A stretch of 36,187 nt of DNA, taken from IMG/VR virus record IMGVR_UViG_3300020414_000984, one strand, 5' to 3'. This document shows positions 21,488-36,186 of the stretch, piece by piece (the stretch's first letter is position 1; each line of letters begins with the position of its first letter). The stretch comes from an uncultured virus (IMG/VR IMGVR_UViG_3300020414_000984) (taxonomy: Duplodnaviria > Heunggongvirae > Uroviricota > Caudoviricetes > Crassvirales). Below the pieces are notes generated by a model. That model searched no databases and was not told the DNA's origin. It saw nothing but the letters and a program-made list of their open reading frames with translations. The translations under genes were made by a program, and so were the position numbers.

Positions 21488-24400
21488 ATGACAGAAGAAG
21501 AATTTTTAATGTCTCTACCACAAAGTCTTGATCCAGATGAAAAATTAAAAAGACTTGAGCAATGGAGACAAGAAAATCCTCAACCTGAAGTTGAAGAAGA
21601 AGTAGTTGAAGAAGAAGTATCTGAGCAACAACCTAAAGAAGAAATAATATCTTCTGAAAATGTTAATTTTAGTTTTCCTAGTTCATTTAACAATCAACAA
21701 AAACCAAGTTTATTTTCTTTAGGTTCTGATGGACAGATTGATATAAACTCTTCTATTTTTAACACATCTAATACAGATACTTTAAATTATCAGTTTCAAG
21801 GAACGTCTTTGCCTACTACTAACTTAAATTTAAGTTTAGGTGGTTTGCAAAACAATGTTGAAGCAATGGAGGCTCAACAAAGACTTACTGCTGTAAGTAA
21901 ACCTAATGAAATCATGAATACTTTTGATAAGTCATATGAATATAAATATGATCTTGTTGATGGTAAAATGATTTATTATACTAGAAAAAATGGCACTGAA
22001 GACGAGTGGGATGTAATAGATAATCCAGAAGATAATAGATATTTTGATATTGGAGCTAAAGTTTTTAAACATTTTGATTATGACGAAGAAGCTTATGACC
22101 AAGGACAAAGTATAATAAGACAAGGTAAGAAAGTAGGTAAAAAATACAGTTCTTTTATGGAAGAATCAGAAACTATATTGTTAGATGAAACTTCCACAGA
22201 AGAATTTGTAGATATAGAAAAAATATTTACAGAGCGCGTGCAAATGACTGATGAACAAGAGGAAAATAATGAAGATGCAGCCACTTCATTTGTTGAAAAT
22301 AAACAAAGAGAAAGAGTAGAGGTTAAAGAAGTAACAACTAAAATTGGAAGTGAAGGTGGAAAACCTATATATTCTACACAAAAAGTAAAAGTAAAAACTG
22401 GTGAGATGGAGGATAATCCAGATTACATAGCTGCAAGAGATGAGGCTATAAAACAGTTAAAAAATGAAAAAGGTATACTTGATAAAGATTTTGATTTAAA
22501 CGATCCAGAAATCATGAAAATGGTAGATGCTCGTATTTATCAAAATAAATTACGTGAATTAAACTCTGCAACTACTATTAATAATTTAGAAAATTATATT
22601 GAAGGTTTAGGTACAGATTTTGATCTTGCTGATTATTATGAAGTAGGTGTTGACTTTTTAACTGACGCAAGTCCTATTTTTAATACTTTAAAAGATAAAC
22701 TTTTACCAAAAATAAACGAAGAATTAGGTACTAATCTTGGTGAAAAAACAATACTAGATGTTTTTGATAGAACTGAACTTCAACAACGAATGGAGAAGTT
22801 TATTGATATTAAACAAAGTAATTTAGATAATAAATCAAAAAAGCTAGAAACTTTCATGGCTAGTGGTGAGGATTTATTAAAACAACTTAATCGAGTTGCT
22901 CTTAATATATCAAAAGGTAATTATCAAACACCTAGTCAAGTAGACGAAGCGAATAAAGCTTTAACTAATATTAATAAACAGATAGACGAAACATTAAACC
23001 TTATAAATAAAAAATATGATGAGTTTAGTGATGAGTTAGAAAAAAACCCTGATCTTGCTGGTTTTGCTGATAAGCTAAAAAGAAACTATGGTGCTTTTCC
23101 TTTAATGGTTAATAATTTTAAAGCAGCTGGTACTGAAATGTTTTTAGGTGTAGAAGAAATGGCTTACCAAGTGTACAATTTATATGACGCAGGTGTAGAC
23201 TGGGTAGATGATAATGTGTTTGGTGGTTATAATTTATTTTCATCAACTTTAAATCCAGCAGGAGAATTAGTTTCATTATTTGGTATGGAGAGTGATTTAG
23301 AAGAATGGAGAACAAACAACATAGAGCTTACTGAAAAATGGATACAAGATTCGTTAAGAGGTACTATTGCTGAAGCGAAAAGCGTTAGTGATATAACAGA
23401 TTTTGGTGATTTTGTTACATGGGGTTTTACTAATGTAGGAACTTTAACACCTCAAGTCATGGCTATGACAGTATCTCCTCATACTGGGTTGCTTATTGTA
23501 GGTTCTAGTGCTGGTGGTAATAAATTTAAAGAGCTTACAAAAATAGAAGAACAAAGTGTAGAAGATTATAGAAAATGGAATGATTTAAAACCTACACAAA
23601 GAGATGGTGAAAGCGATGAGTTATTTAAAGAGAGAACACAGAGATGGCAAGATGAAAAACCTGAAATAGTAAACTATACCGCTCTTCAAAAATATGGTGG
23701 TGCTATGATGACCATGGGATTAGAACTAGGTTTAGGTAGAGTTGTTAGTTTACCTTTTGCTAAAGGTAATTCACTAGTGTCTCCTATTTTAAATAGAATA
23801 AAAGTATTACCAGGTGCTCAAAATAAATGGTCTAGGATGTTTGCTAATGGAGTAAGAAAATCAGCAGTAGGTTTTGGAGATGCTCAATTAGAAGGATTTG
23901 AAGAAGGTTTAATAGGTGTAGGAGATAATTGGTATAGAAGATACGTATTAGGTGATACTAGTGTTAATTTATTTGATGGTTTTTGGGATCAATACTCAGC
24001 TGGAGTTATGGGTGGTTATTATTTCAAAGCACCGCATCTTATGACTAGTGTTTTAAATACAGTTCAAACACCAAAAGATGTATCTAATATTACAGGATTA
24101 CAAAATGAAATTAAAAGTATTAATAATACAATACTCAATAATCCTAAAATGTCTGCTAATACTAAAGATATATTAAACGACAATGTTGCAACAAAAATTA
24201 ATCAGATAACAAACAGTATAAATACTTCTTTAAATACATTTACTCAAATGTCTGAAACAGATTTTAATTTGTTAGGAACTATAGATCAACAACTTTTTGA
24301 AATTAATAGTCAAATTGAGCAAATACAAAATGACGATGGCATCGTTGAAGGAAAAGAACAATTAATAGAAGATCTTCAAAACGAAAGAAACAATTTAACA

Positions 24401-27400
24401 GGTCAAAAAAATACAGTATTAGAGGCGTATCAACAAATAGACTCACAACAAGTTACATTAGGTAATGGTCAAATTATTCCTATAGCTACAATAAGAAAAG
24501 GATCTGAAGTAGTTGCAGAGCAACTAGGCGATACTGATATTGTAAGATTTGATACTACACAAGATTTTATTGGTGGTATAGAAACTTTAAGAGCTGAAGG
24601 TGTAGAAGTTGAATTAGCACAAGATACTGAAGGAAATACTTTACCAGCTGATCAACAAAGTTATGGATTAATTGCTACTTTACCAGATGGCACTAAGCAA
24701 GTAATAATCAATAATGCTTCACAAGAAGCAGATGGGGTTATACCTGCTGATAAACATGAAGTATTACATGCTTTTGCAGCTAAGATGGATCCTGAGGTTA
24801 AATTAAAAATGGGACAAGATTTATATAATCTTCTTGTTAATGACACAGGTGATGTTACGAGTAGGGTTGAAATTGACCCTAGAACTAGAGCTTCACTAGA
24901 TACTTATAGAAAAGATTTATTAGAAGGAAAAATAGATGAAGCGCAGTTTTATGAAGAAGTTATGGCTGTTGTTAGTGATGGTTTAACTCAAGGTACTGTA
25001 GATGTTAAAGAAACAGGACCAATAATGAGTCTTGTAAATAAATTTTTAGAAACTATAGGTTTTAAACAAAGTTTTGAAGATGGTAAACAGGTTATAGATT
25101 TCTTAAAAGATTTTAATAAAGATGTATTAAGCGGTAAAGGTTTATCTCAACAAACTTTAGATAAAGCTGGAGTAAATTTAGACCAAGAAGTAGATATGGG
25201 TCTTGAAACAGAAGTTGATTTAGGTGTTGTACAAAGTCAAAAACTACCTGAAGCAACTGAAGTTTACATGGATGTAGATAACAATGCTCTTCAACAAGGT
25301 TTAAACAATGCAATACAAAACCAAACAGATCAACAGTTTCCAATAGCTCAAGCAATTGTAGAAAAAAACTGGCCATTAATAAGTAAATCACTTAATATAA
25401 ATAGTCAGCAAGAAATGGAAGCTGCTAAAGAAGTTGTTATTGATCAAGTATTAGGACAGTTTGAAGGATCTGGTCAAGGTAAATATGGTCCTAGAAACAC
25501 TAGTGCATTAGCTGGTTTTTCGTTGGAAGGTGGAGCACAAGTTAGTACATATTTAGCTGAAACAATAAGAACTAGAAAACCTGAAATTGATGCAGCTATA
25601 GCTGATAGAACTGGTGGTCCAGGTATACAAGCTGACCAAATGGGTGATGTAGCTGTAGAAACCGATGTAACAGAAGTTGCAGAAACTAGACGTACACCTA
25701 GTCAAACAACTACATATTCTGATGCTATATTAGAAAATGTACAAACAGATAAAAATGGTTTAGAAACTAGAATAACTGAGTCAATTCAAGAGTCATATCC
25801 CGGAAGAACAGATGTAACTTTAGCTGAAACTAGAAATATACCTACACAAGTAGCTCAAGTATACGGTGATATGTTTGGTATTAATCCACAAACATTATCA
25901 GATAAAACAAGAAACTTTCAAAAAACAGATGCAGATGGTTTAAACGCTGCAAAACGTTTTTTAATTGATAACGCTCAAGCTGATTTTGCTAATTTACCTG
26001 ATGCGCTAGACGTAGATGGTAAAGGTACATTTATACCTCTTAATGTTAAAAAAGCATTATATACTGACGGTAAAAAAACAGGTACATTAAAAGATTATTT
26101 AGATTTAATTAGAATAAAACCTGAAAAACCTATTTATAGAGACAGAGCTGGTCAAACTATTAGAGGGTTGTTAAATACTCATATTAGAAACAGAATACTA
26201 GAAACATCTAATCCTGATCCTGCTTCAAGAAAACGAAGTGGTGCTAAGTTTAGTAAAAGAGCAAAGGTTAAAAGTACCCAAGTAGATAACCGTACACCAA
26301 ATCAAGTTTTAGCAGATATGGGTAGAGGACCAATGAGAATACAAACAGCAGCTGATGGTAGTTTAGTTGTAGATTCTGGTCCTGTTGAACCTTTAACAAA
26401 GTCGGGAAGAACTTTTCCTAAAGTTAAAGCTTCTAAAAAAATTGATGTTAAAGAGGTAATAAAACTAGAAGAAACAGCGGTAGATCAAACAGTTTCCGAA
26501 ATATCTAAAGCTGAACCTATTCCAACTATAAGCTATCAAAAACTAGAAAAAGATTTAAAGCCTGGAAATATAAAAGATAAAGTATACACAGGTTTAAGAG
26601 ATCAAAGTGCTCCTTATAAAAAAGATAAAAAAGGTAAAACTATAGAAACCTATGAGCAAGCTAGAAATAGAGTAGTAAATGATTTTTTAGATAAACATCC
26701 TAAATGGAAAAGTTTTATTAGAAGAGGAATGGCAGGTGGTATCGAAAACAGTTTATTTCTTAGTACTCAAGAATATAGAAACGCAACAGCAAATGTACCA
26801 GCTAGTGTTCAAACAGATATTTTGCCTTCTAGCATTGGAACTAAAACTTCTGATATACAAGGCTCTAATAAATTAAATCCAAAAGGATTAAAAGATTTTA
26901 ATAAAGATAATGAAGCTTTAAAACCAGAAATATTAATTGAGTTTTGGGGAGATGTAGCAGATTTTTTACAAGATAATAAAAAAGATGCTTGGTTTTTTGG
27001 TGAAATGGTTAATGATTCTAGAAATCACACTGCTGGTCCACTAAGATCAGCTGCTGCTTATTCTTTTTATCCTATAAATCCTAAATCTAAAAAAGCTAAT
27101 TTTGAAGTACCTATTTTAATAGAACATGGTATGCCTAATTTTGCTGCTAACAAACCTCTGTTTGCAGCCGCGATGAAAGGAAGAAATTATGTAAATGCTT
27201 TAAAAGACGTTACTGTTGCTTCGTATGGGCAAGGAGCTATAATGAACGACACTACAACTGATAAATCTAAAAGTGATGATGATTTAGTTAATGTTGATTA
27301 TAAAAATAACATGCCGGCTTGGTTTTATACTAATACAATTCCAGCTATTAAATCAGGTCAATTAAATAATATTATAGATAAATACCCTGGATTAATTGGA

Positions 27401-30400
27401 CCTGTTGCAAGAATGTCGGCATCTGGCGTAAATCAAAATTCTTATGCTAGTCCTGTTGATGGTAAATCTATACCTGAAATATTCGATGTTGAAGTAGATC
27501 CTCAGTTTAGAGACGGCGCAAACGTAGTTGTTGCTCAAAACAAAGCTATAATTAATACCTTAAAAGGTATGACTAAAGCTGACGTGCAAAAACAATTTAA
27601 ACTTGATTTAAAAATAGCTAAAGATAAAGATGTTGCAACAAAAAAATCACTTGTAGATAAAGGTCCTGAAGTATTTGACTCTAACATGACAGTTGAAAAA
27701 ATGAAAACTGTTGCTACAAACTCGTTAAAAACCAAGGTTTTATCTAGTAAAAGAACACCAAAACCAAAAGGTATAAGTGTATTTGATTTTGATGATACAC
27801 TTGCTAAAACAAAAGAAAAGGTTATAGTAAAAACACCTGACGGTAAAACAAAAGAGATAAGTGCTGCTGAATTTGCTAGAGAAGCTGCTAATCTTGTAGA
27901 AGCAGGTGCTGAATTTGATTTTAGTAATTTTGAAAATGTAGCTAGCGACACAGCAGAAGGACCATTAGCAGATCTTGCTAGAAAACGTCAAGGTAAATTT
28001 GGTAGCGGCGATATATTTGTTTTAACTGCAAGACCCGCGACAGCTGCACCAGCTATACAACAATTCTTAAAAAGCATTGGTATTAATATACCTTTAGCTA
28101 ATATTACAGGATTAGGTGATGGATCACCACAAGCTAAGGTTGATTTTGTTTTAAATAAAACCGCTGAAGGTTATAATGATTTTTATTTTGCAGATGATTC
28201 ATTTGCTAATGTCGAAGCTGTTAGTCAAATATTAGATGCTGTTGATGTTAAAAATAGAGTTGAACAAGCTCAAACTAAAGAAGTTAAATTAAATAATGAT
28301 ATAAATCAAATAATTGAAGAAGTTACAGGTGTTGAGTCATTTAAAAAGTATTCTACAGTTAGAGCAAGATTAGAAGGTAAGAAAAAAGATGGAGGTATAT
28401 TTAAACGTATAGGAAAACAACTTACTATTACAGCATCTGCTGAAGATTTTGAAGGATTAACATATGCTTTAAGAGGAAAAGGCGAACAAGGTGATAGACA
28501 CGCTAAATGGATAAATGATAACTTACTTGATCCTTACAATAAAGCAGAGCTAGAATTATTAAGTGCAAAAGTAAATGTTGGTAGAGATTTTGCTGCTTTA
28601 AGAAAAAAGTTTCCAACATTAAAAGGTAGTAAACTTAGCTTTAATAATCCACTATTAAAAGAAATAGATGGTGGACCATTTAATAAAGAACAAGCTGTAA
28701 GAGTTTATTTATGGAATAAGCAAGGTAATGAAATACCTGATATGTCAAAAAGAGATGTTAATCGTTTAGTAAAAGCAGTAGAAGCAGATATTGAACTTCA
28801 AACTTTTGCCGATGAACTAGCATCAATACAAAGAAGTCCTGAATATCCAGCGCCAGGTAAAAATTGGTTAGGTGGAAGTATTAAAAATGATATATTAAAT
28901 GCTATGGACGGATCATTTAGATCTGAGTTAATGGCTGAGTTTAATGAAAATGTAGATATTATATTTAGTCCAGAAAATTTAAATAAGCTTGAGGCTATAT
29001 ATGGAAGCAAATATGTAGAAGCATTAAAAGATTCTATACGTAGAATGAAGTCGGGTAGCAATAGGCCTGTAATTACTGGTAGTGGCGCTAGAGTTGTAAA
29101 TGAAATGCTTGATTGGCTTAATGCTTCTGTTGCTAACGTAATGTTTTTAAATTCAAGATCTGGACTACTTCAAACATTATCAACGGTAAATTTCATAAAT
29201 TGGGGTGATAATAATCTATATGCAGCCGCTAAAGCTTTTGGAAGTAAAGAAATGTGGCCTACATTTATGAAATTAATGAACTCTGATTATTTAATAAACA
29301 GACGTGATGGTTTAAGAATTAATGTAAATGAAGCTGAACTTGCTGACGCTGCTAAAAAAGGTGGTATAAAAGGTGCTTTTAGTTATTTAATGGATAAAGG
29401 TTTTGCTATTACTAGAGTTATGGATAGTTTTGCTATTGCACTTGGTGGTTCTACATTTTTTATTAATCGTAAAAAAGCTTTATTAAATAGAGTTAATCCT
29501 GACACAGGTAAATTATATACTGAAGCAGAAGCTGATGAAAAAGCTTTTCAAGATTTTTATGCAATAGCAGAAGAAACTCAACAGTCGAGTAATCCTGCAA
29601 GAATATCATCTCAACAAGCTAGTATTGCTGGTCGTGTATTGTTATCTTTTCAAAACATAACAATGCAGATGAATAGAAAAACTAAAAAATCTATATTAGA
29701 TCTGTATAACAGACGTAAAAAACCTGGCATGACACAGCGAGAAAGTGATTTAAGTAACATGTCAAGCGTTATTTATTATGTTGGTATGCAAAACTTAATA
29801 TTTAATTCTTTACAACAAGGTTTATTTGCAATGTTGTTTGATGATGAAGAAGAAGAAGATAAAAGAAAACAAGAAAGATTTGCTAATACTTTAAATGGTA
29901 TGACTGATTCTTTATTATTTGGACTTGGTTTTGGTGGAGCAATAATAGCAACAAGTAAAAATATACTTATGCGTATAGCTGATGAGTCAGATAAAAATAA
30001 ACCAGATTATAGAGATATACCTGACGATGTGTTTGATGTAAGTTCGGTTATAGATGCTAAGTTTAGAAAACTTAAATCAGCTGCTAGAACTTTTACTTTT
30101 GAAAGAGACGAAATAAAAAGAAGAGGTTGGAGTATAGATAATCCTGCTTACTTAGCAGTTGCTCAAATTATAGCGGCGTTTACTAACGCACCTGTTGATA
30201 GAGTATTAATGAAGGTGAATAACTTAAGACAAGCTTCTGATGAATCAGTAAGAACTTGGCAAAGAGTTGCTTTAGTACTTGGTTGGAGCGGTTGGCAGTT
30301 TGGTTTACCATATTATGGTAGACAAAGTACTATTGATCGTGAAAATAAAGAAGATGAAAAGATAAAAGAAAACTATGCTAAGCAGGTTAAAGAAGTTAAA

Positions 30401-30535
30401 GCAAAAGGTTTTACTAAAAAAATACCTTTATCAGGACCAAATCATTATAAACCAAAAGGTGAACTAGGAGTTGATTACATGCAAGTAGAAAGACCTGATG
30501 GTACAATACAATATTACGTAAAACATAAAAAATGA
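21488..30535 (+). CDS. Giant (3015 aa) polyvalent internal virion protein with zincin-like and HAD-like domains
   Basis: HEVLH at 24755-24769 with downstream YEEVMA; HAD motifs VFDFDDTL (27785), VLTAR, K and YFADDS; hydrophobic Gly-rich segments. Confidence 0.75.
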   Translation: MTEEEFLMSLPQSLDPDEKLKRLEQWRQENPQPEVEEEVVEEEVSEQQPKEEIISSENVNFSFPSSFNNQQKPSLFSLGSDGQIDINSSIFNTSNTDTLNYQFQGTSLPTTNLNLSLGGLQNNVEAMEAQQRLTAVSKPNEIMNTFDKSYEYKYDLVDGKMIYYTRKNGTEDEWDVIDNPEDNRYFDIGAKVFKHFDYDEEAYDQGQSIIRQGKKVGKKYSSFMEESETILLDETSTEEFVDIEKIFTERVQMTDEQEENNEDAATSFVENKQRERVEVKEVTTKIGSEGGKPIYSTQKVKVKTGEMEDNPDYIAARDEAIKQLKNEKGILDKDFDLNDPEIMKMVDARIYQNKLRELNSATTINNLENYIEGLGTDFDLADYYEVGVDFLTDASPIFNTLKDKLLPKINEELGTNLGEKTILDVFDRTELQQRMEKFIDIKQSNLDNKSKKLETFMASGEDLLKQLNRVALNISKGNYQTPSQVDEANKALTNINKQIDETLNLINKKYDEFSDELEKNPDLAGFADKLKRNYGAFPLMVNNFKAAGTEMFLGVEEMAYQVYNLYDAGVDWVDDNVFGGYNLFSSTLNPAGELVSLFGMESDLEEWRTNNIELTEKWIQDSLRGTIAEAKSVSDITDFGDFVTWGFTNVGTLTPQVMAMTVSPHTGLLIVGSSAGGNKFKELTKIEEQSVEDYRKWNDLKPTQRDGESDELFKERTQRWQDEKPEIVNYTALQKYGGAMMTMGLELGLGRVVSLPFAKGNSLVSPILNRIKVLPGAQNKWSRMFANGVRKSAVGFGDAQLEGFEEGLIGVGDNWYRRYVLGDTSVNLFDGFWDQYSAGVMGGYYFKAPHLMTSVLNTVQTPKDVSNITGLQNEIKSINNTILNNPKMSANTKDILNDNVATKINQITNSINTSLNTFTQMSETDFNLLGTIDQQLFEINSQIEQIQNDDGIVEGKEQLIEDLQNERNNLTGQKNTVLEAYQQIDSQQVTLGNGQIIPIATIRKGSEVVAEQLGDTDIVRFDTTQDFIGGIETLRAEGVEVELAQDTEGNTLPADQQSYGLIATLPDGTKQVIINNASQEADGVIPADKHEVLHAFAAKMDPEVKLKMGQDLYNLLVNDTGDVTSRVEIDPRTRASLDTYRKDLLEGKIDEAQFYEEVMAVVSDGLTQGTVDVKETGPIMSLVNKFLETIGFKQSFEDGKQVIDFLKDFNKDVLSGKGLSQQTLDKAGVNLDQEVDMGLETEVDLGVVQSQKLPEATEVYMDVDNNALQQGLNNAIQNQTDQQFPIAQAIVEKNWPLISKSLNINSQQEMEAAKEVVIDQVLGQFEGSGQGKYGPRNTSALAGFSLEGGAQVSTYLAETIRTRKPEIDAAIADRTGGPGIQADQMGDVAVETDVTEVAETRRTPSQTTTYSDAILENVQTDKNGLETRITESIQESYPGRTDVTLAETRNIPTQVAQVYGDMFGINPQTLSDKTRNFQKTDADGLNAAKRFLIDNAQADFANLPDALDVDGKGTFIPLNVKKALYTDGKKTGTLKDYLDLIRIKPEKPIYRDRAGQTIRGLLNTHIRNRILETSNPDPASRKRSGAKFSKRAKVKSTQVDNRTPNQVLADMGRGPMRIQTAADGSLVVDSGPVEPLTKSGRTFPKVKASKKIDVKEVIKLEETAVDQTVSEISKAEPIPTISYQKLEKDLKPGNIKDKVYTGLRDQSAPYKKDKKGKTIETYEQARNRVVNDFLDKHPKWKSFIRRGMAGGIENSLFLSTQEYRNATANVPASVQTDILPSSIGTKTSDIQGSNKLNPKGLKDFNKDNEALKPEILIEFWGDVADFLQDNKKDAWFFGEMVNDSRNHTAGPLRSAAAYSFYPINPKSKKANFEVPILIEHGMPNFAANKPLFAAAMKGRNYVNALKDVTVASYGQGAIMNDTTTDKSKSDDDLVNVDYKNNMPAWFYTNTIPAIKSGQLNNIIDKYPGLIGPVARMSASGVNQNSYASPVDGKSIPEIFDVEVDPQFRDGANVVVAQNKAIINTLKGMTKADVQKQFKLDLKIAKDKDVATKKSLVDKGPEVFDSNMTVEKMKTVATNSLKTKVLSSKRTPKPKGISVFDFDDTLAKTKEKVIVKTPDGKTKEISAAEFAREAANLVEAGAEFDFSNFENVASDTAEGPLADLARKRQGKFGSGDIFVLTARPATAAPAIQQFLKSIGINIPLANITGLGDGSPQAKVDFVLNKTAEGYNDFYFADDSFANVEAVSQILDAVDVKNRVEQAQTKEVKLNNDINQIIEEVTGVESFKKYSTVRARLEGKKKDGGIFKRIGKQLTITASAEDFEGLTYALRGKGEQGDRHAKWINDNLLDPYNKAELELLSAKVNVGRDFAALRKKFPTLKGSKLSFNNPLLKEIDGGPFNKEQAVRVYLWNKQGNEIPDMSKRDVNRLVKAVEADIELQTFADELASIQRSPEYPAPGKNWLGGSIKNDILNAMDGSFRSELMAEFNENVDIIFSPENLNKLEAIYGSKYVEALKDSIRRMKSGSNRPVITGSGARVVNEMLDWLNASVANVMFLNSRSGLLQTLSTVNFINWGDNNLYAAAKAFGSKEMWPTFMKLMNSDYLINRRDGLRINVNEAELADAAKKGGIKGAFSYLMDKGFAITRVMDSFAIALGGSTFFINRKKALLNRVNPDTGKLYTEAEADEKAFQDFYAIAEETQQSSNPARISSQQASIAGRVLLSFQNITMQMNRKTKKSILDLYNRRKKPGMTQRESDLSNMSSVIYYVGMQNLIFNSLQQGLFAMLFDDEEEEDKRKQERFANTLNGMTDSLLFGLGFGGAIIATSKNILMRIADESDKNKPDYRDIPDDVFDVSSVIDAKFRKLKSAARTFTFERDEIKRRGWSIDNPAYLAVAQIIAAFTNAPVDRVLMKVNNLRQASDESVRTWQRVALVLGWSGWQFGLPYYGRQSTIDRENKEDEKIKENYAKQVKEVKAKGFTKKIPLSGPNHYKPKGELGVDYMQVERPDGTIQYYVKHKK

Positions 30536-30627: not shown

Positions 30628-31812
30628 ATGAAAAAACTAGTCCTTGTCCTCTTTGCGGCGGTTATTGCGGTATCTGTTAACGCTCAAGAAAAGAAAAGCT
30701 TATTTAAAAGTATATACGAAGATATATTTAAGTATAGTACTATTTATGTAGCTGGTGATATACAAAACCCTAAAGAAGAACCAAAAGATTATTTTGTAAG
30801 AACTAATCCTAGTGGAAACATATACGAACCACCTGTTGTAGTAGATGGTACAGACTATTATGACTTTGATTATCGCTATGGTTTTGGTATTCGTAAGATT
30901 GCTAGATTTGATTATGAAATAAAAGGCAAAAACTATTATGATGGTACTGAATCTAACGTAGGTTTAGCAGCTTCTAACTCACCGATTAAAGGTCTTGAAT
31001 ATGTATTTCATACTGAAAAAGAAAGATCCAGAGATGAAGTATTTAAAAATCACCGTTATTTTCTAAAACATAGCGGTAAATACCACATGGTTAAAGTTGA
31101 AAGTAGAAAACAAGGTAAAGTAAACTTTAATTATAAGTCAGCTGAAATTAGAGGTAAAATACCCATGGGTGATAAATTTTCATTTAATGCTGGAGTTATA
31201 TACCGTACACATGATAGAGCTTATGGATATAATCCAATTGAAATATGGTTAAATGAAACAGACGAAAATGGTTGGCCTGTTAACTATTGGTATCAATTAG
31301 GATATAACTATGGATATACTGATCAATGGGTTACTATTAACATTGATGGTGAAGATGTTTATGATTATTATTGGTATGATCCACAAGGAAATGAAGTAGC
31401 TTACACTGATTTACAGTTCCGTGACACTATATTTGAATCACTTATTAATCGTTATAATAACGAGCAGTGGGATTTATTAGATCCGTTTGGTGTTGTGTCA
31501 CCTGTTGTCGGTTTTGACTTCTATCATTATAAAAATAATTTCTGGCTTCATGCTTATGGTTCTTATTTATTACCATATCACAAGTATGTAAAAGGCGATG
31601 AAGACTTTAGTTATTTAAATAGAAACAATTGGGGATTAGGCGGATTACGTCAAGACTCAGACTTAGAGCAATGGGAAGATTATCAAGCTGGTGTAGTATT
31701 TGGCTGGAAACTAAACAAATCAATTGGTGTATTTTTTGAAGGCGAATATACTAAGTTCTGGGATAGTAAAATTTATAATGGATCAGTAGGTTTAAATATA
31801 ACACTAAGATAA
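30628..31812 (+). CDS. Secreted protein, probable outer-membrane beta-barrel
   Basis: Sec signal peptide ending VSVNA-Q; aromatic-rich alternating strands; C-terminal strand YNGSVGLNITLR. Confidence 0.6.
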   Translation: MKKLVLVLFAAVIAVSVNAQEKKSLFKSIYEDIFKYSTIYVAGDIQNPKEEPKDYFVRTNPSGNIYEPPVVVDGTDYYDFDYRYGFGIRKIARFDYEIKGKNYYDGTESNVGLAASNSPIKGLEYVFHTEKERSRDEVFKNHRYFLKHSGKYHMVKVESRKQGKVNFNYKSAEIRGKIPMGDKFSFNAGVIYRTHDRAYGYNPIEIWLNETDENGWPVNYWYQLGYNYGYTDQWVTINIDGEDVYDYYWYDPQGNEVAYTDLQFRDTIFESLINRYNNEQWDLLDPFGVVSPVVGFDFYHYKNNFWLHAYGSYLLPYHKYVKGDEDFSYLNRNNWGLGGLRQDSDLEQWEDYQAGVVFGWKLNKSIGVFFEGEYTKFWDSKIYNGSVGLNITLR

Positions 31813-31813
31813 T

Positions 31814-32101
31814 ATGGCACAGAAGATAGGTGAAGAAACACAGGTAACGCTTGATCTTAAAACAATAGGCATGATAGTAGGTTTTGTAATTATGTTAGCT
31901 GGTATGTGGTTTACATTACAAGCAGATATAGCTCAAGCTAAAGAATTACCTGCACCAGTTATTGATAGAGTAGAATATGATTTAAAAGACGAGTTGATAC
32001 GTCAAACCATCATGGATACGCAAGAAGATGTTGAAGAGATAAAAGAAACTATTGATAAGATTGACGAAAGACTGTACGAGATACAAAAAAACGGAAGATG
32101 A
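31814..32101 (+). CDS. Single-TM membrane protein with a C-terminal coiled coil
   Basis: IGMIVGFVIMLAGMWFTL transmembrane segment, then DVEEIKETIDKIDERLYEI heptads. Confidence 0.7.
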   Translation: MAQKIGEETQVTLDLKTIGMIVGFVIMLAGMWFTLQADIAQAKELPAPVIDRVEYDLKDELIRQTIMDTQEDVEEIKETIDKIDERLYEIQKNGR

Positions 32102-32496
32102 AATACTTAAATATAATTTTATTATTATTATCATTTAATGTATCTGCTCAAGAGTGGATAACAGATGATAACTTTGATAATAAAATAAATGAAAAACAAG
32201 CTTTTGGTGATGATCAAAGTAAACCTGTTATTGTAGAGTTTTACGCTAAGTTTAACGATGCTAATAAGTTTGATCAATGGTCTGAACTAAAAGATGTTAT
32301 ATATTATAGAGCAGATATAGCCGTATGTCCAGCTGCTAAGAAAAAATATAAAGTACGTATGGCACCAACACTTATTATATTTAAAGATGGTATAAAAGAA
32401 ACTGTTTTTAAAGCTGGTTTAGATTTAACACTACCAGCAGATCTAAGTGATATACAAGAAGCAATAAATGAAGTTAATAATGCAAGTAAATTTTAA
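32098..32496 (+). CDS. Secreted thioredoxin-fold protein lacking CxxC
   Basis: Signal peptide (VSA-Q); ITDDNFD...PVIVEFYAKFN in place of WCxxC; cis-Pro loop MAPTLIIFKDG. Confidence 0.7.
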   Translation: MKYLNIILLLLSFNVSAQEWITDDNFDNKINEKQAFGDDQSKPVIVEFYAKFNDANKFDQWSELKDVIYYRADIAVCPAAKKKYKVRMAPTLIIFKDGIKETVFKAGLDLTLPADLSDIQEAINEVNNASKF

Positions 32497-32499
32497 ATT

Positions 32500-32889
32500 A
32501 TGAGTAGTAAGTTTTCTAGTCCCTTTATGAATAAAAGTCCTTTAAGAGATGCTAAGTTTAATACTTCGCTACAACCTCGAGTAATGGATCCTACGCAAAA
32601 TATAAATATGACGCAACAAGAAATAGTTAATGAGAGAGAAGCTCTTACAGACGCTGTTGTAGGAGGAGTAACTCTTAATCCAACTTTTGCGGGCGTTAGC
32701 ACTGCGGGTAAAGGTATTGCAGCTACAGCAAAAGCTATAACTTCAGGAGGTTTGCGTAATTTAGTTGCGAAAAATGTTAACAAAATTACTGGATTTTTTG
32801 CTAAAAAATTAGGTTTAAAAGGTGGTACTAGTGGGGTTAGTAGTACTAAAAATTTAAATAAAAAAGTACCTGATCTAGGCAATATGTAA
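32500..32889 (+). CDS. Hypothetical basic protein with an N-terminal SPF/SPL motif
   Basis: MSSKFSSPFMNKSPL; coupled to its neighbours. Confidence 0.6.
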   Translation: MSSKFSSPFMNKSPLRDAKFNTSLQPRVMDPTQNINMTQQEIVNEREALTDAVVGGVTLNPTFAGVSTAGKGIAATAKAITSGGLRNLVAKNVNKITGFFAKKLGLKGGTSGVSSTKNLNKKVPDLGNM

Positions 32890-33038
32890 TGAAAAAAAGA
32901 AAATTAAATAGTACCAATCCTAAATATTATCCAATTAAAGAAGAAGAAGTAAAAGAGAGAAAAGAATTAATAGCTACCATACGCAAAGGCAGAAAACGTA
33001 ACGTTAAAGTCTACGCGGTGTTTAGCGAAATAGAATAA
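32889..33038 (+). CDS. 49-aa basic hypothetical protein (MKKRKLNSTNPKYYP...)
   Basis: TAATG coupling; fills a gap missed by the track. Confidence 0.6.
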   Translation: MKKRKLNSTNPKYYPIKEEEVKERKELIATIRKGRKRNVKVYAVFSEIE

Positions 33039-33040
33039 TT

Positions 33041-33196
33041 ATGAGTTCACCATTATACGGAAAAATTAGTTCAGCTTGTAAAGCTGCTGCAAAAAGAAAA
33101 TTTAAAGTTTGGCCAAGTGCTTATGCTTCAGGTTGGGGTGTGAGATGTACAAAAGCTGGAGGTCCAAGTAAATTTGGAGGTAAAAGCAAAAAGTAA
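33041..33196 (+). CDS. 51-aa basic protein with an AKRKFKVWPSAYAS motif
   Basis: Own translation MSSPLYGKISSACKAAAKRKFKVWPSAYASGWGVRCTKAGG...; the motif resembles DUF5872-type viral proteins (from recollection). Confidence 0.7.
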   Translation: MSSPLYGKISSACKAAAKRKFKVWPSAYASGWGVRCTKAGGPSKFGGKSKK

Positions 33197-33471
33197 TGAC
33201 TTACATACAGCACAACTCACCATTCGCAAAGCAAAAAGGCGGTGGTACAACTAAAACTTGTTTGCCAGCTTCTAAAATAAGAAGCATGAGTAAAGAGCAA
33301 AGAGAAAAACTAGTTAATGCAAAAAGATCTGCAGGAGCTAAAGGTAAATATAAACGATCATCTAAAACAAATGTAAAAGGAGCTCGTAAAAAAGGAGCTA
33401 CATTACGTGACTGGTTTGAAAAAGAAGACTGGAGAAGAGTTGATGATCCATCTAAAAAATGCGGAGAATAA
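33196..33471 (+). CDS. Basic protein with CLP and LRDWFEKEDW motifs
   Basis: Coupled ORF, Lys/Arg-rich. Confidence 0.7.
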   Translation: MTYIQHNSPFAKQKGGGTTKTCLPASKIRSMSKEQREKLVNAKRSAGAKGKYKRSSKTNVKGARKKGATLRDWFEKEDWRRVDDPSKKCGE

Positions 33472-33884
33472 TGAGTACACCAATTAAACATTGTGCTGCT
33501 AGTGTTATGCACACTAAGGTATGGAACGATATGCGAGCTAGACAAGCTGCTGTAGCAGGTAGAGGTTCTGGTAATAAAGTAGGTATTAATCATGCTGAAG
33601 ATAAGCGTAAAACACCGTTAGCTATAAAAGAAGCTGCTTATGAAAAGCAAAATAGAAAAATGCGTGCAGATCATAAAAAAGATACAGGTAAAACTTTAGG
33701 TAAAAGACAAACATCTGGTACAGGTAAACGTAGAGTTTCTTTTGCTTGTAGGTTTGCTGGCATGAAAGGTTCAATGAAGAATAAAAAAGGTGAACCAACA
33801 AGATATGCTATGGCATTAAAAAAATGGGGTTTTGGTAGTAGAGAAGCTGCTAGAAACTTCTGTAATAAAAATAAAGAAAAATAA
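33471..33884 (+). CDS. Basic protein with an RRVSFACRFAGM...ALKKW motif (DUF6321-like)
   Basis: Likely start is the ATG at 33471 (TAATG coupling); family name from recollection. Confidence 0.65.
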   Translation: MSTPIKHCAASVMHTKVWNDMRARQAAVAGRGSGNKVGINHAEDKRKTPLAIKEAAYEKQNRKMRADHKKDTGKTLGKRQTSGTGKRRVSFACRFAGMKGSMKNKKGEPTRYAMALKKWGFGSREAARNFCNKNKEK

Positions 33885-33885
33885 T

Positions 33886-34152
33886 ATGTACACATCACCA
33901 TTTTTTAAACGTATGGGTGAGTTTAAACATTCTGACGCACCTGATGCTAAAGGTAAATTCAATGATCTATCTGCAAGTGAATTAGCTAGTTGGTTAATTA
34001 AAACTAGAAAAGGTAATTTAAAAAAGATTATTGGAAGTTTAAATCAACAAGTTGTATTCAATAGAAAGAAAAGACCTAGCTATGCTAAGAAGATGAAAAC
34101 AACTATGAACATTGTAAGAAAAAGATTAAAGAAAGATGAAGATAAGTCATAA
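33886..34152 (+). CDS. Basic hypothetical protein (MYTSPFFKR...HSDAPDAKG)
   Basis: ATG at 33886 lies just after the upstream stop. Confidence 0.65.
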   Translation: MYTSPFFKRMGEFKHSDAPDAKGKFNDLSASELASWLIKTRKGNLKKIIGSLNQQVVFNRKKRPSYAKKMKTTMNIVRKRLKKDEDKS

Positions 34153-34597
34153 CATAAGCTATGCAGAAGCAATACATTCTAACACTGCTAAAAGAAAAGG
34201 TATAGATAATACACCTAATCCAACGCAGGTAGAAAATATGAAAGTTACTGCAGAAAAAATATTTCAACCACTACGTGAGTGGGTTGGTGGACCAATAAAA
34301 GTTAATTCGTTTTTTAGATCACCAGAACTTAATGAAGCAATCGGCGGAAGTAAAACCAGTCAACATTGTAAAGGTCAAGCAATTGATATTGACGATGTAT
34401 ATGGTTACAAAACAAACGCAGAAATGTATCATTGGGTAAAAGAAAATTTAAATTTTGATCAAATGATATGGGAGTTTGGAACAGATATGAATCCTAACTG
34501 GGTACATATATCATACGTGTCAGAAGAAGATAATAGAAACAGATGTCTAAAAGCCTATAAAGATGATATGGGTAGAACTAAATACAAAGTAATATGA
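34136..34597 (+). CDS. Peptidase M15A-family endolysin
   Basis: SFFRSPELNEAIGGSKTSQHCKGQAIDI (R, SxH-x6-D) and WVHISY zinc-ligand motifs. Confidence 0.88.
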   Translation: MKISHNISYAEAIHSNTAKRKGIDNTPNPTQVENMKVTAEKIFQPLREWVGGPIKVNSFFRSPELNEAIGGSKTSQHCKGQAIDIDDVYGYKTNAEMYHWVKENLNFDQMIWEFGTDMNPNWVHISYVSEEDNRNRCLKAYKDDMGRTKYKVI

Positions 34598-35361: not shown

Positions 35362-36186
35362 CTAACCATCACACGCAATGCACTCTTCCATTGCTTTTTG
35401 TGCAATATCTCCACGCAACACACTTTCTGTACGCATATAATATAAAGTTTTAATTCCTTTTTTCCATGCGTCTAAATGTACTTTATTAATCCATTTAGGT
35501 GTTGCTTCAGCTGGAAACGCTAAATTAAGACTTACTGATTGATCTATATATTGTTGGCGTATTCCTGCTTGTCTTACTAATTCTAATTGATTTATTTCTT
35601 TAAATGTCTTAAATACTTCTTTAGTATCTTCGTCTAATCCTTTTATATCCTGTATAGAACCACCATCTGCTAATATTTTGTCCCATACTTCTTTTGTATT
35701 TAATCCTCTTTTGTCCAACACTTTTTGTAGTGTAGGATTTTTGCGTATAAACGTTCCTTTTGCGCTTTGTTCAGTGAAAACGTTAGCTGCCCACGGTTCA
35801 ATTCCGGGAGACACATTTCCAGAAAGTTTACTATTACTAACAGTGGGAGCAATAGCGCGTAAATGGGTATTGCGAAAGCCAGTACCCACACACCAAAGAG
35901 GTTCTCCATAAACATCAGCAAGAGCCATACTAGCTCTTTCAGATTCGATTTTGATTTGGCTAAAAATTCTTCTTGTTTCATATTGTGCTAATAAACCCTC
36001 AAATGGTAAACCTTTTTCTTGTAAGTACGTATGATAACCTAATACACCTAAACCTAATGCTCTACCTTTTTCAGCAGATCTTACAGAGTTTTCAAAGCCT
36101 TTTCTATATTTAGCTCTTTGTATAAACTCTTCAAGTACTCCATCAAGAAACCATATTGAGTCATAAATGATATTTGTATTTTTCCA
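35362..36186 (-). CDS. nrdA: Class I ribonucleotide reductase alpha subunit, C-terminal part (5'-truncated)
   Basis: The frame is open to the window end (WKNTNIIYDSIWFLD...GRALGLGVLG...); motifs AIAPT, SPGIEP, QQYIDQSVSLN, KTLYYMR and C-terminal CIAC. Confidence 0.95.
   Translation of the reverse strand, partial: WKNTNIIYDSIWFLDGVLEEFIQRAKYRKGFENSVRSAEKGRALGLGVLGYHTYLQEKGLPFEGLLAQYETRRIFSQIKIESERASMALADVYGEPLWCVGTGFRNTHLRAIAPTVSNSKLSGNVSPGIEPWAANVFTEQSAKGTFIRKNPTLQKVLDKRGLNTKEVWDKILADGGSIQDIKGLDEDTKEVFKTFKEINQLELVRQAGIRQQYIDQSVSLNLAFPAEATPKWINKVHLDAWKKGIKTLYYMRTESVLRGDIAQKAMEECIACDG

Follow-up and report, generated by a model that had tools for sequence, protein, structure and literature searches.

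How phages without spanins pass the outer membrane of their hosts is an open question. It is the background to a three-gene cassette (g1, g2 and g3) in the 36,187-nucleotide stretch of DNA analyzed here (the window), which belongs to a marine flavobacterial phage. Kongari et al. 2018 (PMC6139136) report no spanin for about 13% of the surveyed genomes, with Croceibacter and Bacteroides phages among the spanin-less, and Bartlau et al. 2021 (PMC8776804) describe flavobacterial phage lysis genes as mostly unannotated beyond the endolysin. Because the trio is linked to a cell-wall-cutting enzyme, it may represent an undescribed way of opening the host outer membrane. The reading developed below, which is held tentatively and with somewhat less than even confidence, is that the trio is a lysis-associated envelope module performing, or needed for, outer-membrane breaching, a spanin-like device in which an integral outer-membrane protein (OMP) replaces the lipoprotein o-spanin.

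The features of the locus are as follows.

30628-31812, + strand: g1, 394 aa, ORF with a signal-peptide-like N-terminus, predicted exported outer-membrane beta-barrel.
31213-31485, + strand: conserved inserted alpha/beta domain of g1, ~90 residues (196-286), between two barrel strands.
31814-32101, + strand: g2, 95 aa, single-pass inner-membrane protein with an N-terminal transmembrane segment (TM), an AKELP motif and a C-terminal heptad helix.
32098-32496, + strand: g3, 132 aa, exported thioredoxin-fold protein without CxxC, matching PF00085.
32889-33038, + strand: g5, 49 aa, strongly basic, usually between g3 and the endolysin in relatives.
34136-34597, + strand: endolysin, peptidase M15_3 (PF08291 at 3.2e-17; phrog_894 endolysin at 1.1e-32).

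The tight coupling of three + strand genes at 30628..32496, first described from the sequence alone, was reproduced exactly by the open reading frames: g1 and g2 are one base apart, while g2 and g3 have 4 bases in common. The endolysin that the same sequence-only reading had placed near the trio lies 1.64 kb downstream of g3 on the same strand, beyond six small unrelated ORFs (~1.6 kb). No terminator-like site was found on the + strand between g1 and position 35375.

The recurrence of the cassette in other genomes was analyzed at loci with at least 3 kb of flank on both sides of the g1 homologue. All of these informative loci (58/58) have both g2 and g3 on the same strand as g1 and no more than 3 kb from it; many of the loci are closely related to the window, and they are therefore not independent. 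The three genes therefore do co-occur elsewhere, where a failure to do so had been named in advance as counting against the cassette. The internal arrangement is also conserved, with g3 directly after g2 (within 15 nt) in 87/89 loci and only two gene orders, g1-g2-g3 (72 loci) and g2-g3-g1 (17 loci). The linkage persists to 27-35% g1 identity, on contigs ranging from 3.7 to 216 kb, and is far beyond chance.

The g1 family is large and looks phage-only, being essentially confined to phage contigs. At E<=1e-3, a protein collection contained 2382 relatives; among the 120 that were listed, not one carries a Pfam domain or a name beyond 'hypothetical protein'. A scan of one representative genome per species (185,579 species), run with a 9-sequence alignment, returned only 6 g1 matches, all on MAG contigs. 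In the GenBank phage collection, no record was matched by three divergent g1 queries or by g2, and the trio is absent from the nearest GenBank relative, MW202828.1 (62% terminase identity). Immediately upstream of its own M15 endolysin, this relative encodes a protein of 207 aa with an N-terminal anchor, an arrangement suggestive of a genomic slot shared with the trio. The nearest relative record, G001, is a 6-kb fragment without g1.

The first gene product, g1, is predicted to be an outer-membrane beta-barrel protein. Its N-terminus is signal-peptide-like (MKKLVLVLFAAVIAVSVNA|Q), and the protein contains no cysteine. The AF2 model (mean pLDDT 75.9) consists for the most part of long beta hairpins. 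Nearly all top rows of a VIA-align search with this model are outer-membrane barrels (Z 8-11.5), and the 7/7 Foldseek matches at E<=1e-3 are OMP barrels as well, with low TM-scores (0.2-0.3); a protein atlas offered leads only, toward OMP families at 0.92-0.93. Sequence searches gave no such placement: Pfam produced no meaningful match over 31 family members (best E 0.012, seven unrelated single-member matches), and a PDB sequence search returned nothing at E<=10. Distant g1 homologues have an aromatic last residue (e.g. ...NYLIF), whereas the window protein ends in ...NITLR, that is, in Arg instead of the aromatic residue usual for the OMP beta-signal. The combination of a signal peptide with a barrel-class fold from AF2, Foldseek and VIA-align agrees with the earlier assignment of g1 to the outer membrane, and the barrel whose absence would have told against that assignment is predicted.

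The domain inserted at residues 196-286 is conserved in the family alignment and was modeled confidently when folded alone (pLDDT 89.9, pTM 0.75). It has no clear fold match (best VIA Z 3.5, best Foldseek E 0.19); the best VIA match corresponds to a generic alpha-beta-beta-beta-alpha arrangement, as in dsRBDs. Across the g1 family E124 is invariant, and R89, K90, R133, R175, R193, H195, S291, H308 and N390 are conserved at >=90%. Such conserved polar residues would also fit an enzyme, and g1 alone might act on the outer membrane, either as an OMPLA- or LpxR-like barrel hydrolyzing lipid or LPS or as a large channel or gated pore, with g2 and g3 keeping it inactive until the wall is gone. The VIA-align list does include LpxR (3fid, Z 10.0, rmsd 6.7, 175 aligned) and OMPLA (1fw2, Z 8.6, rmsd 4.6, 163 aligned), and the lysis context described below would serve this explanation as well as the spanin-like one. 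These Z values are, however, no better than those of two dozen non-enzymatic barrels in the same list, and the Pfam and PDB searches revealed no sequence relation to lipase- or LpxR-type families, so that an autonomous g1 is considered unlikely.

The second product, g2, fits the inner-membrane coiled coil proposed from the sequence, with a single hydrophobic segment (the TM at residues 17-35) followed by a C-terminal heptad helix in which I62, I66, T69, V73, I76, I80, I83, L87 and I90 follow a 3-4 hydrophobic spacing. It lacks cysteine, and in g2-family alignments E54 is invariant and L45 nearly so. In long homologues the N-terminus is extended by 60-120 residues and has no signal peptide, which argues for an N-in/C-out topology. 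Type II secretion ATPases have a nucleotide-binding N-terminal domain, and the extra domain of the long homologues was suspected to be of this kind; Pfam returned only DUF4388, below threshold in 5/5 (E 7.5e-4 to 0.047; 25-bit cut-off), which does not establish that assignment. PHROG matches of the g2 family are weak throughout and include phrog_1009, of unknown function (12/27 members).

A small single-pass protein with a periplasmic helical domain that travels with lysis genes also resembles a regulator of lysis timing. The model for this alternative is T4 RI, which is small and combines a membrane segment at its N-terminus with a domain in the periplasm. On this view g2 with g3 would form an antiholin or lysis-inhibition factor acting on the holin from the periplasm and g1 would be an outer-membrane sensor or anchor. 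The extra cytoplasmic domain of the long g2 variants could then be regulatory, and 3/27 g2 homologues weakly match phrog_1296, which is annotated as a holin (best E 8.8e-4). On the other hand, no significant match of g2 to a holin or antiholin family was found, including the phrog_3427 holin profile, which g2 does not match. The full records of window-type relatives (5/5, of which 4 have a completeness rating of 100%) encode a separate phrog_3427 holin elsewhere, tens of kb from the trio. This separate holin rules out g2 as the sole holin of these phages, and its distance speaks against a timing factor. Timing control would also leave the strict co-inheritance of a 394-aa barrel (58/58) unexplained, and it is accordingly given little probability.

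The third product, g3, starts with a signal-peptide-like segment and matches the Pfam Thioredoxin family PF00085 (E 5.6e-7, 30 bits against a cut-off of 23.5), as did 3/3 distant homologues scanned, all above cut-off. A g3 family profile retrieved thioredoxins and PDI domains from the PDB at 1e-11 to 5e-27. The CxxC motif is absent from the family: the aligned stretch is free of Cys in all 29 members, and the sole cysteine of g3, C77, is not conserved. Two residues show no variation across the 29 sequences, P90 at the cis-Pro position and F132 at the C-terminus. With its signal peptide, its PF00085 match and its missing CxxC, g3 answers closely to the periplasmic redox-inactive thioredoxin that had been described.

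In the genomic surroundings, an endolysin lies within 3 kb of the trio in 44/58 informative loci and a holin-like gene within 4 kb in 12/58; one or the other is near in 47/58, or 48/58 when L107, in which a third endolysin type directly follows the trio, is counted. The 44 endolysin-linked loci have 68-98% g1 identity to the window and are fairly close relatives, and they therefore amount to only two architectures. In the window type the order is g1-g2-g3-(g5)-M15 endolysin, while in the second type g2-g3-g1 is directly followed by an M15 or amidase endolysin and then by a holin-like gene. Overall, three types of endolysin occur near the trio, and at least four genome architectures are represented among the loci. 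A phrog_3427 gene stands beside the trio in 20 loci; in L097 and L099, this holin is encoded 0.5-1 kb after g3 (E 1e-25 to 5e-27). In the remaining 10/58 loci (the P0027 type and six of nine loci of the P0046 type), the 3-4 kb around the trio contained no recognized lysis gene.

These 10 loci count in favor of an explanation in which the trio remodels the envelope apart from lysis, through superinfection exclusion, receptor masking or help in exporting surface proteins, with the linkage to lysis genes reflecting shared late expression. The targeting of the trio products to all three envelope compartments suits this explanation too. Yet PADLOC defense and exclusion models matched 0/5 proteins, and the trio directly adjoins three different endolysin types. 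Exclusion genes are, moreover, usually variable add-ons, whereas the trio is conserved to about 27% identity with its internal order fixed. A role apart from lysis thus appears rather improbable. The sequence-only reading had proposed a new lysis, superinfection-exclusion or uptake apparatus; the positive context favors the lysis part of this proposal, and no positive context emerged for superinfection exclusion or uptake.

Recognizable spanins were looked for in the same genomes. No credible lipobox ORF was present in any frame of the 36-kb window, the Rz family PF03245, the one spanin family searched by accession, was found in 0/5 full records of relatives, and a Pfam scan of g1-g3 gave no PF03245 match. 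PADLOC and NCBIfam likewise gave nothing above cut-offs for g1-g3. The view that the cassette does not match canonical holin/spanin systems therefore stands, with g1-g3 in no such family.

Two other small gene products of the cassette could be the real outer-membrane effector, namely g5 or a phrog_29588 lipoprotein. With 15 K+R against 7 D+E, the net charge of g5 comes to about +8, and by tblastn g5 is found just before the endolysin in most window-type loci (66-96% identity). No PHROG family was matched, and Pfam gave nothing significant, the single match being at chance level (E 0.046, 14.7 bits; cut-off 29.4). In relative G005 the lipoprotein gene is located between g3 and the endolysin; in the second-arrangement lineage, a homologue from phrog_29588 is encoded between g3 and g1. 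Either could carry out the outer-membrane step while the trio serves another envelope role, and a preprint on phage phiKT (bioRxiv 10.1101/515445) provides a precedent in gp28, a cationic peptide (disruptin) that disrupts the outer membrane. Against this, g5 was not found in second-arrangement or distant lineages and its maximum helical hydrophobic moment is modest (0.44), the lipoprotein is absent from the window, and both are less widely linked to lysis genes than the trio. This explanation is regarded as quite improbable, and g5 may or may not be part of the module. Contigs assembled from two marine RNA libraries, which can contain DNA, included relatives' sequences over g2-g3 and over a g5-endolysin junction, as well as a 208-base contig identical to part of g4.

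Under the favored spanin-like reading, g1 would be exported late in infection to form a beta-barrel in the outer membrane, and g2 would be anchored in the inner membrane in an N-in/C-out orientation that places its coiled coil in the periplasm. Periplasmic g3 would act as a redox-dead thioredoxin-fold adaptor, binding either g2 or the conserved g1 insert through the retained cis-Pro groove and the invariant Phe at its C-terminus. Removal of the cell wall by the M15 endolysin and the holin, the latter encoded elsewhere, would come first, after which the linked inner- and outer-membrane components would destabilize or fuse the membranes in the manner of a two-component spanin. In this scheme we infer the mutual binding of the three proteins, the side faced by the g1 insert, the timing and the membrane-disruption activity. 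A complex prediction of g1 (20-394) and g2 (36-95) with g3 (18-132) as partner, run without controls, scored under the mark and points neither way. Several observations run against the spanin-like reading: the periplasmic part of g2, at only ~60 residues, is short to span the periplasm alone, g1 and g2 are Cys-free, the window g1 lacks the terminal aromatic, and the window endolysin is 1.6 kb away beyond six unrelated small ORFs. To these are added the loci without a recognized lysis gene, the restriction of the endolysin-linked loci to two architectures, and g5 and the phrog_29588 lipoprotein as other candidate effectors.

With 2382 relatives, confinement to phages, conservation across very different phage genomes and an association with lysis genes, the trio is a concrete and testable candidate for the missing step. 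The group concerned, phages of marine Flavobacteriia, is ecologically important in turning over algal-bloom carbon. If the spanin-like reading is true, an integral OMP can replace the lipoprotein o-spanin, and a cysteine-free periplasmic thioredoxin fold gains its first function. A broader proposal, which is possible but on balance doubtful, is that the trio represents a further, non-homologous class of phage outer-membrane-breaching systems, in addition to two-component spanins, unimolecular spanins and the cationic disruptin, and usual in marine Bacteroidota phages. The barrel would anchor the device through the whole outer membrane, the cis-Pro groove and C-terminal Phe of g3 would form a latch between the g1 insert and the g2 coiled coil, and the cytoplasmic domain gained by the inner-membrane subunit in some lineages could make the moment of lysis depend on a signal inside the cell.

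The individual components each have known counterparts. Phage-encoded outer-membrane proteins include lambda Lom and Bor, which are add-on (moron) products, that is, accessory lysogenic-conversion genes that occur singly, without fixed partners, and are not tied to lysis genes. Like them, g1 is a phage gene product bound for the host outer membrane, but it is much larger and strictly linked to g2 and g3. With outer-membrane beta-barrels of 12-16 strands (autotransporter translocators, OmpG, KdgM/NanC, Omp85 barrels, LpxR, OMPLA), g1 shares the predicted fold class, the signal peptide and, in its distant members, the aromatic end. It differs from these families in having no sequence relation to any of them, in carrying a conserved ~90-residue folded insert of no assignable fold, and in occurring on phage contigs only. 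Similarly, g3 shares with the thioredoxin superfamily (PF00085) the fold, by sequence profile, and the conserved cis-Pro of the substrate groove, the nearest solved sequences being TXNDC5 and PDI domains and bacterial thioredoxins. Unlike that superfamily it has neither CxxC nor any conserved Cys, and it carries a signal peptide for export, ends in an invariant Phe and consistently follows g2 directly.

As a complete system, the trio can be compared with two kinds of outer-membrane device. The disruptin gp28 of phiKT is, in the preprint, a non-spanin outer-membrane solution in a spanin-less phage, and the window also has a small basic protein, g5. The trio, in contrast, combines a barrel with a membrane anchor and a folded domain in the periplasm, none of them a small cationic peptide, and g5 is confined to one lineage. 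The literature search found no paper describing the trio or an OMP-type o-spanin. Kongari et al. (PMC6139136) allow that an OMP could in principle serve as o-spanin. The trio also resembles two-component spanins (lambda Rz/Rz1, T4 PseT.3/PseT.2). With its N-terminal TM and periplasmic coiled coil, g2 matches an i-spanin. It is paired with an outer-membrane-anchored g1 encoded by an adjacent gene, the trio is co-directional with lysis genes and often next to them, and the phage otherwise has no recognizable device for the outer-membrane step. There are also differences. The trio shows no Rz (PF03245) similarity and no embedded or overlapped gene architecture, and binding between its subunits is presumed. 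Neither g1 nor g2 has a periplasmic Cys for intermolecular disulfides, and the Cys of g3 is unconserved, whereas periplasmic Cys is absent from only about 4% of two-component spanins in the same survey (PMC6139136). Where an o-spanin is a small lipoprotein with a lipobox Cys, g1 is a predicted 394-aa integral beta-barrel, and to this pair the trio adds an obligatory periplasmic thioredoxin-fold subunit.

The three genes of the trio, proposed as an envelope cassette in the sequence-only reading, were found exactly where that reading had placed them:

30628-31812 (+), g1, 394 aa, predicted outer-membrane beta-barrel
31814-32101 (+), g2, 95 aa, transmembrane segment and heptad helix; starts one base past g1
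32098-32496 (+), g3, 132 aa, thioredoxin fold; overlaps g2 by 4 bases

The window comes from a tailed phage and covers its structural and late region. A GroES-like gene, large terminase, portal and virion proteins are encoded on the + strand; next come a 3015-aa ORF, the trio, a series of small basic ORFs and the gene for an M15 endolysin. The product of the 3015-aa ORF (21488-30535, +), directly 5' of the trio, is probably a very large protein, either virion or internal; it has no PHROG match, and relatives are only 36-67% identical in its C-terminal third. The C-terminal part of a ribonucleotide reductase gene (35362-36186, -) converges on the late operon, with a terminator-like hairpin (35375-35394) inside its 3' end, ~110 bases beyond the last + strand gene; no terminator-like site was found on the + strand between g1 and 35375. 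The terminase has relatives in 87 GenBank phage records, of which 68 are from Flavobacterium, 15 from Cellulophaga, 2 from Tenacibaculum and 1 from Maribacter, the remaining one being uncultured; the host is therefore likely a member of the Flavobacteriia. Terminase identity is ~44% to cultured phages and 62% to the nearest GenBank relative, MW202828.1. That relative has no trio; directly 5' of its M15 endolysin is a gene whose 207-aa product has a membrane anchor at the N-terminus (L117:6371-6994). At least four studies contributed marine metagenomes and viromes with DNA near-identical to the window.

To assess linkage, 107 loci were gathered: 80 from IMG/VR with g1 of the window as query (206 of 211 pattern matches confirmed), 21 with two distant g1 homologues and 6 from a genome collection. 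Every ORF was scanned with HMMs of g1, g2 and g3. In all 58 informative loci, those with at least 3 kb of flank on each side of g1, g2 and g3 lie within 3 kb of g1 on the same strand. This count leaves aside 48 loci whose flanks are shorter and one whose g1 is truncated. Short-flank loci without g2 or g3 have less than 1 kb of flank on the expected side; L103, with 917 bases downstream and no g2, is the unexplained exception. In 87 of 89 loci g3 comes next after g2, no more than 15 nt on. Of the two gene orders, g1-g2-g3 accounts for 72 loci and g2-g3-g1 for 17.

Clustering at 50% leaves 249 representatives of the g1 family, which has 2382 relatives at E<=1e-3 and is near-absent from prokaryote genomes. 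Among 185,579 species (one genome each) there were six matches, all on MAG contigs; these look like mis-binned phage DNA, since two are labelled archaeon and one Pelagibacter.

Genomic context links the trio to lysis genes, in the following arrangements:

Window type: g1-g2-g3-(g5)-M15 endolysin, g5 being a 49-aa basic ORF
Second architecture: g2-g3-(small phrog_29588 protein)-g1; an endolysin, either M15 or amidase, comes next after g1 and precedes a 47-aa ORF and a holin-like gene
L107: the trio, then directly an endolysin with a peptidoglycan-binding and an amidase domain
L097, L098 and L099: a holin-like gene 0.5-1 kb 3' of g3 (phrog_3427 in L097 and L099, E 1e-25 to 5e-27 against PHROGs)

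In many window-type relatives the endolysin is just 0.8 kb past g1; extra small ORFs separate the two in the window itself. The second architecture has tail-fibre genes upstream. An endolysin occurs within 3 kb in 44 of the 58 informative loci and a holin-like gene within 4 kb in 12; one or the other is near the trio in 47, or 48 with L107 added. As g1 in the 44 endolysin-linked loci is 68-98% identical to that of the window throughout, the independent support amounts to about four architectures rather than 48 cases. Our tentative reading is that the trio may work like a spanin, the phage device for the outer-membrane step of lysis, without belonging to that family; a rival is that it controls the timing of lysis. 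No recognised lysis gene is nearby in the remaining 10 loci (the P0027-type and six of nine P0046-type), and envelope remodelling independent of lysis is a further alternative.

On yet another rival reading, a different small gene, g5 or the lipoprotein, would be the true outer-membrane effector. The window contains no ORF with a lipobox in any frame, one 38-aa antisense candidate inside a gene being discounted. In the complete record of a relative, G005, a phrog_29588 lipoprotein gene lies between g3 and the endolysin; the window lacks it. This family, of unknown function (small lipoprotein or exported protein; L114:8667-9005, equal to G005 28667-29005, and L025:3812-4174), occurs within the cassette of some lineages. 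The g5 product (32889-33038, +; 15 K+R vs 7 D+E) is highly conserved, immediately 5' of the endolysin in many relatives, and may act on membranes as a cationic peptide within the lysis cassette.

Other neighbours vary. The 129-aa, Gly/Thr-rich g4 (32500-32889, +) has no family and appears to have been inserted recently; of 80 related loci only 2 gave a tblastn match to it, and metagenome DNA contigs join 32479/32493 straight to 32887, skipping it. Small, very basic ORFs (33041-33884, +) lie between trio and endolysin, including a DUF6321 protein (36.8 bits, cut-off 28.5) and a DUF5872-like protein; their presence and order differ among relatives. Distant trio-bearing phages encode three kinds of sensory or channel-like neighbour, unusual for phages: a protein with one TM and an MscS beta-domain, encoded just 5' of g1, a haem-NO-binding (HNOB) protein (E 2.3e-45) and a POPDC/cNMP-binding membrane protein (L081:4573-4989, L089:4113-4538; L087:7413-7964; L094:8091-8747).

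On sequence grounds the g1 family is an orphan: no meaningful Pfam match was found in any of 31 members, no PDB sequence match to g1 at E<=10 and no PHROG family. The protein has a signal-peptide-like N-terminus and no cysteine. An AF2 model from an alignment of 31 homologues (mean pLDDT 75.9) consists almost entirely of long beta hairpins. Of 48,161 chains compared by VIA-align, 25 matched with Z>=8, the top rows being almost without exception outer-membrane barrels of 12-16 strands: EstA (Z 11.5, rmsd 4.1, 170 aligned), CdiB (10.7), BamA and TamA (10.5 each), OmpG and KdgM (10.4 each) and LpxR (10.0). All seven Foldseek matches at E<=1e-3 are also OMP barrels, at low TM-scores of 0.2-0.3, and the nearest named clusters in a language-model atlas are OMP families (0.92-0.93, a lead only). 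Distant homologues end in an aromatic residue, like OMP beta-signals; the window's g1 ends in Arg. That g1 is an enzymatic or pore-forming barrel is a further rival to the spanin-like reading.

Residues 196-286 of g1 form a conserved insert flanked by two strands. Modelled alone it folds confidently (pLDDT 89.9), and structure comparison gave no assignable fold. Since six strands follow it in the model and the variable, low-confidence loops 91-121 and 323-350 have the opposite parity, the insert may face the periplasm, on the side of the C-terminus; this placement is not secure, depending on one short strand (319-322).

The single TM of g2 spans residues 17-35, followed by a conserved AKELP motif, an invariant Glu (E54) and about four heptads. 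Homologues in other phage lineages (L081:6099-6776, L087:7964-8632, L094:7045-7644, L099:7470-8048, L101:7010-7639) have N-termini longer by 60-120 residues without a signal peptide, so the g2 N-terminus should be cytoplasmic and its coiled coil periplasmic. The added cytoplasmic domain, which could be regulatory, contains two similar ~24-residue segments (...LGEILV..G.IT...L...), and in some cases a poly-Pro linker; its only Pfam matches, to DUF4388, are sub-threshold. No holin or spanin family matched g2; the PHROG matches are weak, to phrog_1009 (unknown function; 12 of 27 members) and phrog_1296 ('holin'; 3 of 27, best E 8.8e-4). All five full records of window-type relatives carry a phrog_3427 holin distant from the trio, and g2 therefore need not be the holin.

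The g3 product is an exported thioredoxin fold (PF00085 above cut-off), and its family profile matches thioredoxins and PDI domains in the PDB. The CxxC position lacks cysteine. Only two positions are invariant in 29 sequences, the C-terminal F132 and P90, which occupies the cis-Pro position in the substrate groove of thioredoxins. A shorter form of 107 aa, from a different lineage, is homologous by hhalign (probability 96%, E 1.6e-9) and likewise ends in ...SKF.

No account of the trio, or of an OMP-type o-spanin (the outer-membrane component of a spanin), turned up in a full-text literature search. Section 15 of Kongari et al. (PMC6139136) raises an OMP as o-spanin in general terms, and the relevant passages of Bartlau et al. 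2021 (PMC8776804), on new flavobacterial phages, annotate only endolysins and scattered TM proteins. Compared with a two-component spanin, the trio lacks a lipoprotein, periplasmic cysteine in g1 and g2, and sequence homology to Rz (PF03245, found in none of five relatives). With several features of spanins lacking, the trio is not placed in that family. Its anatomy nevertheless resembles that of a two-component spanin, in which an integral outer-membrane protein, g1, would take the lipoprotein's place and the thioredoxin-fold g3 would be an additional, third subunit.
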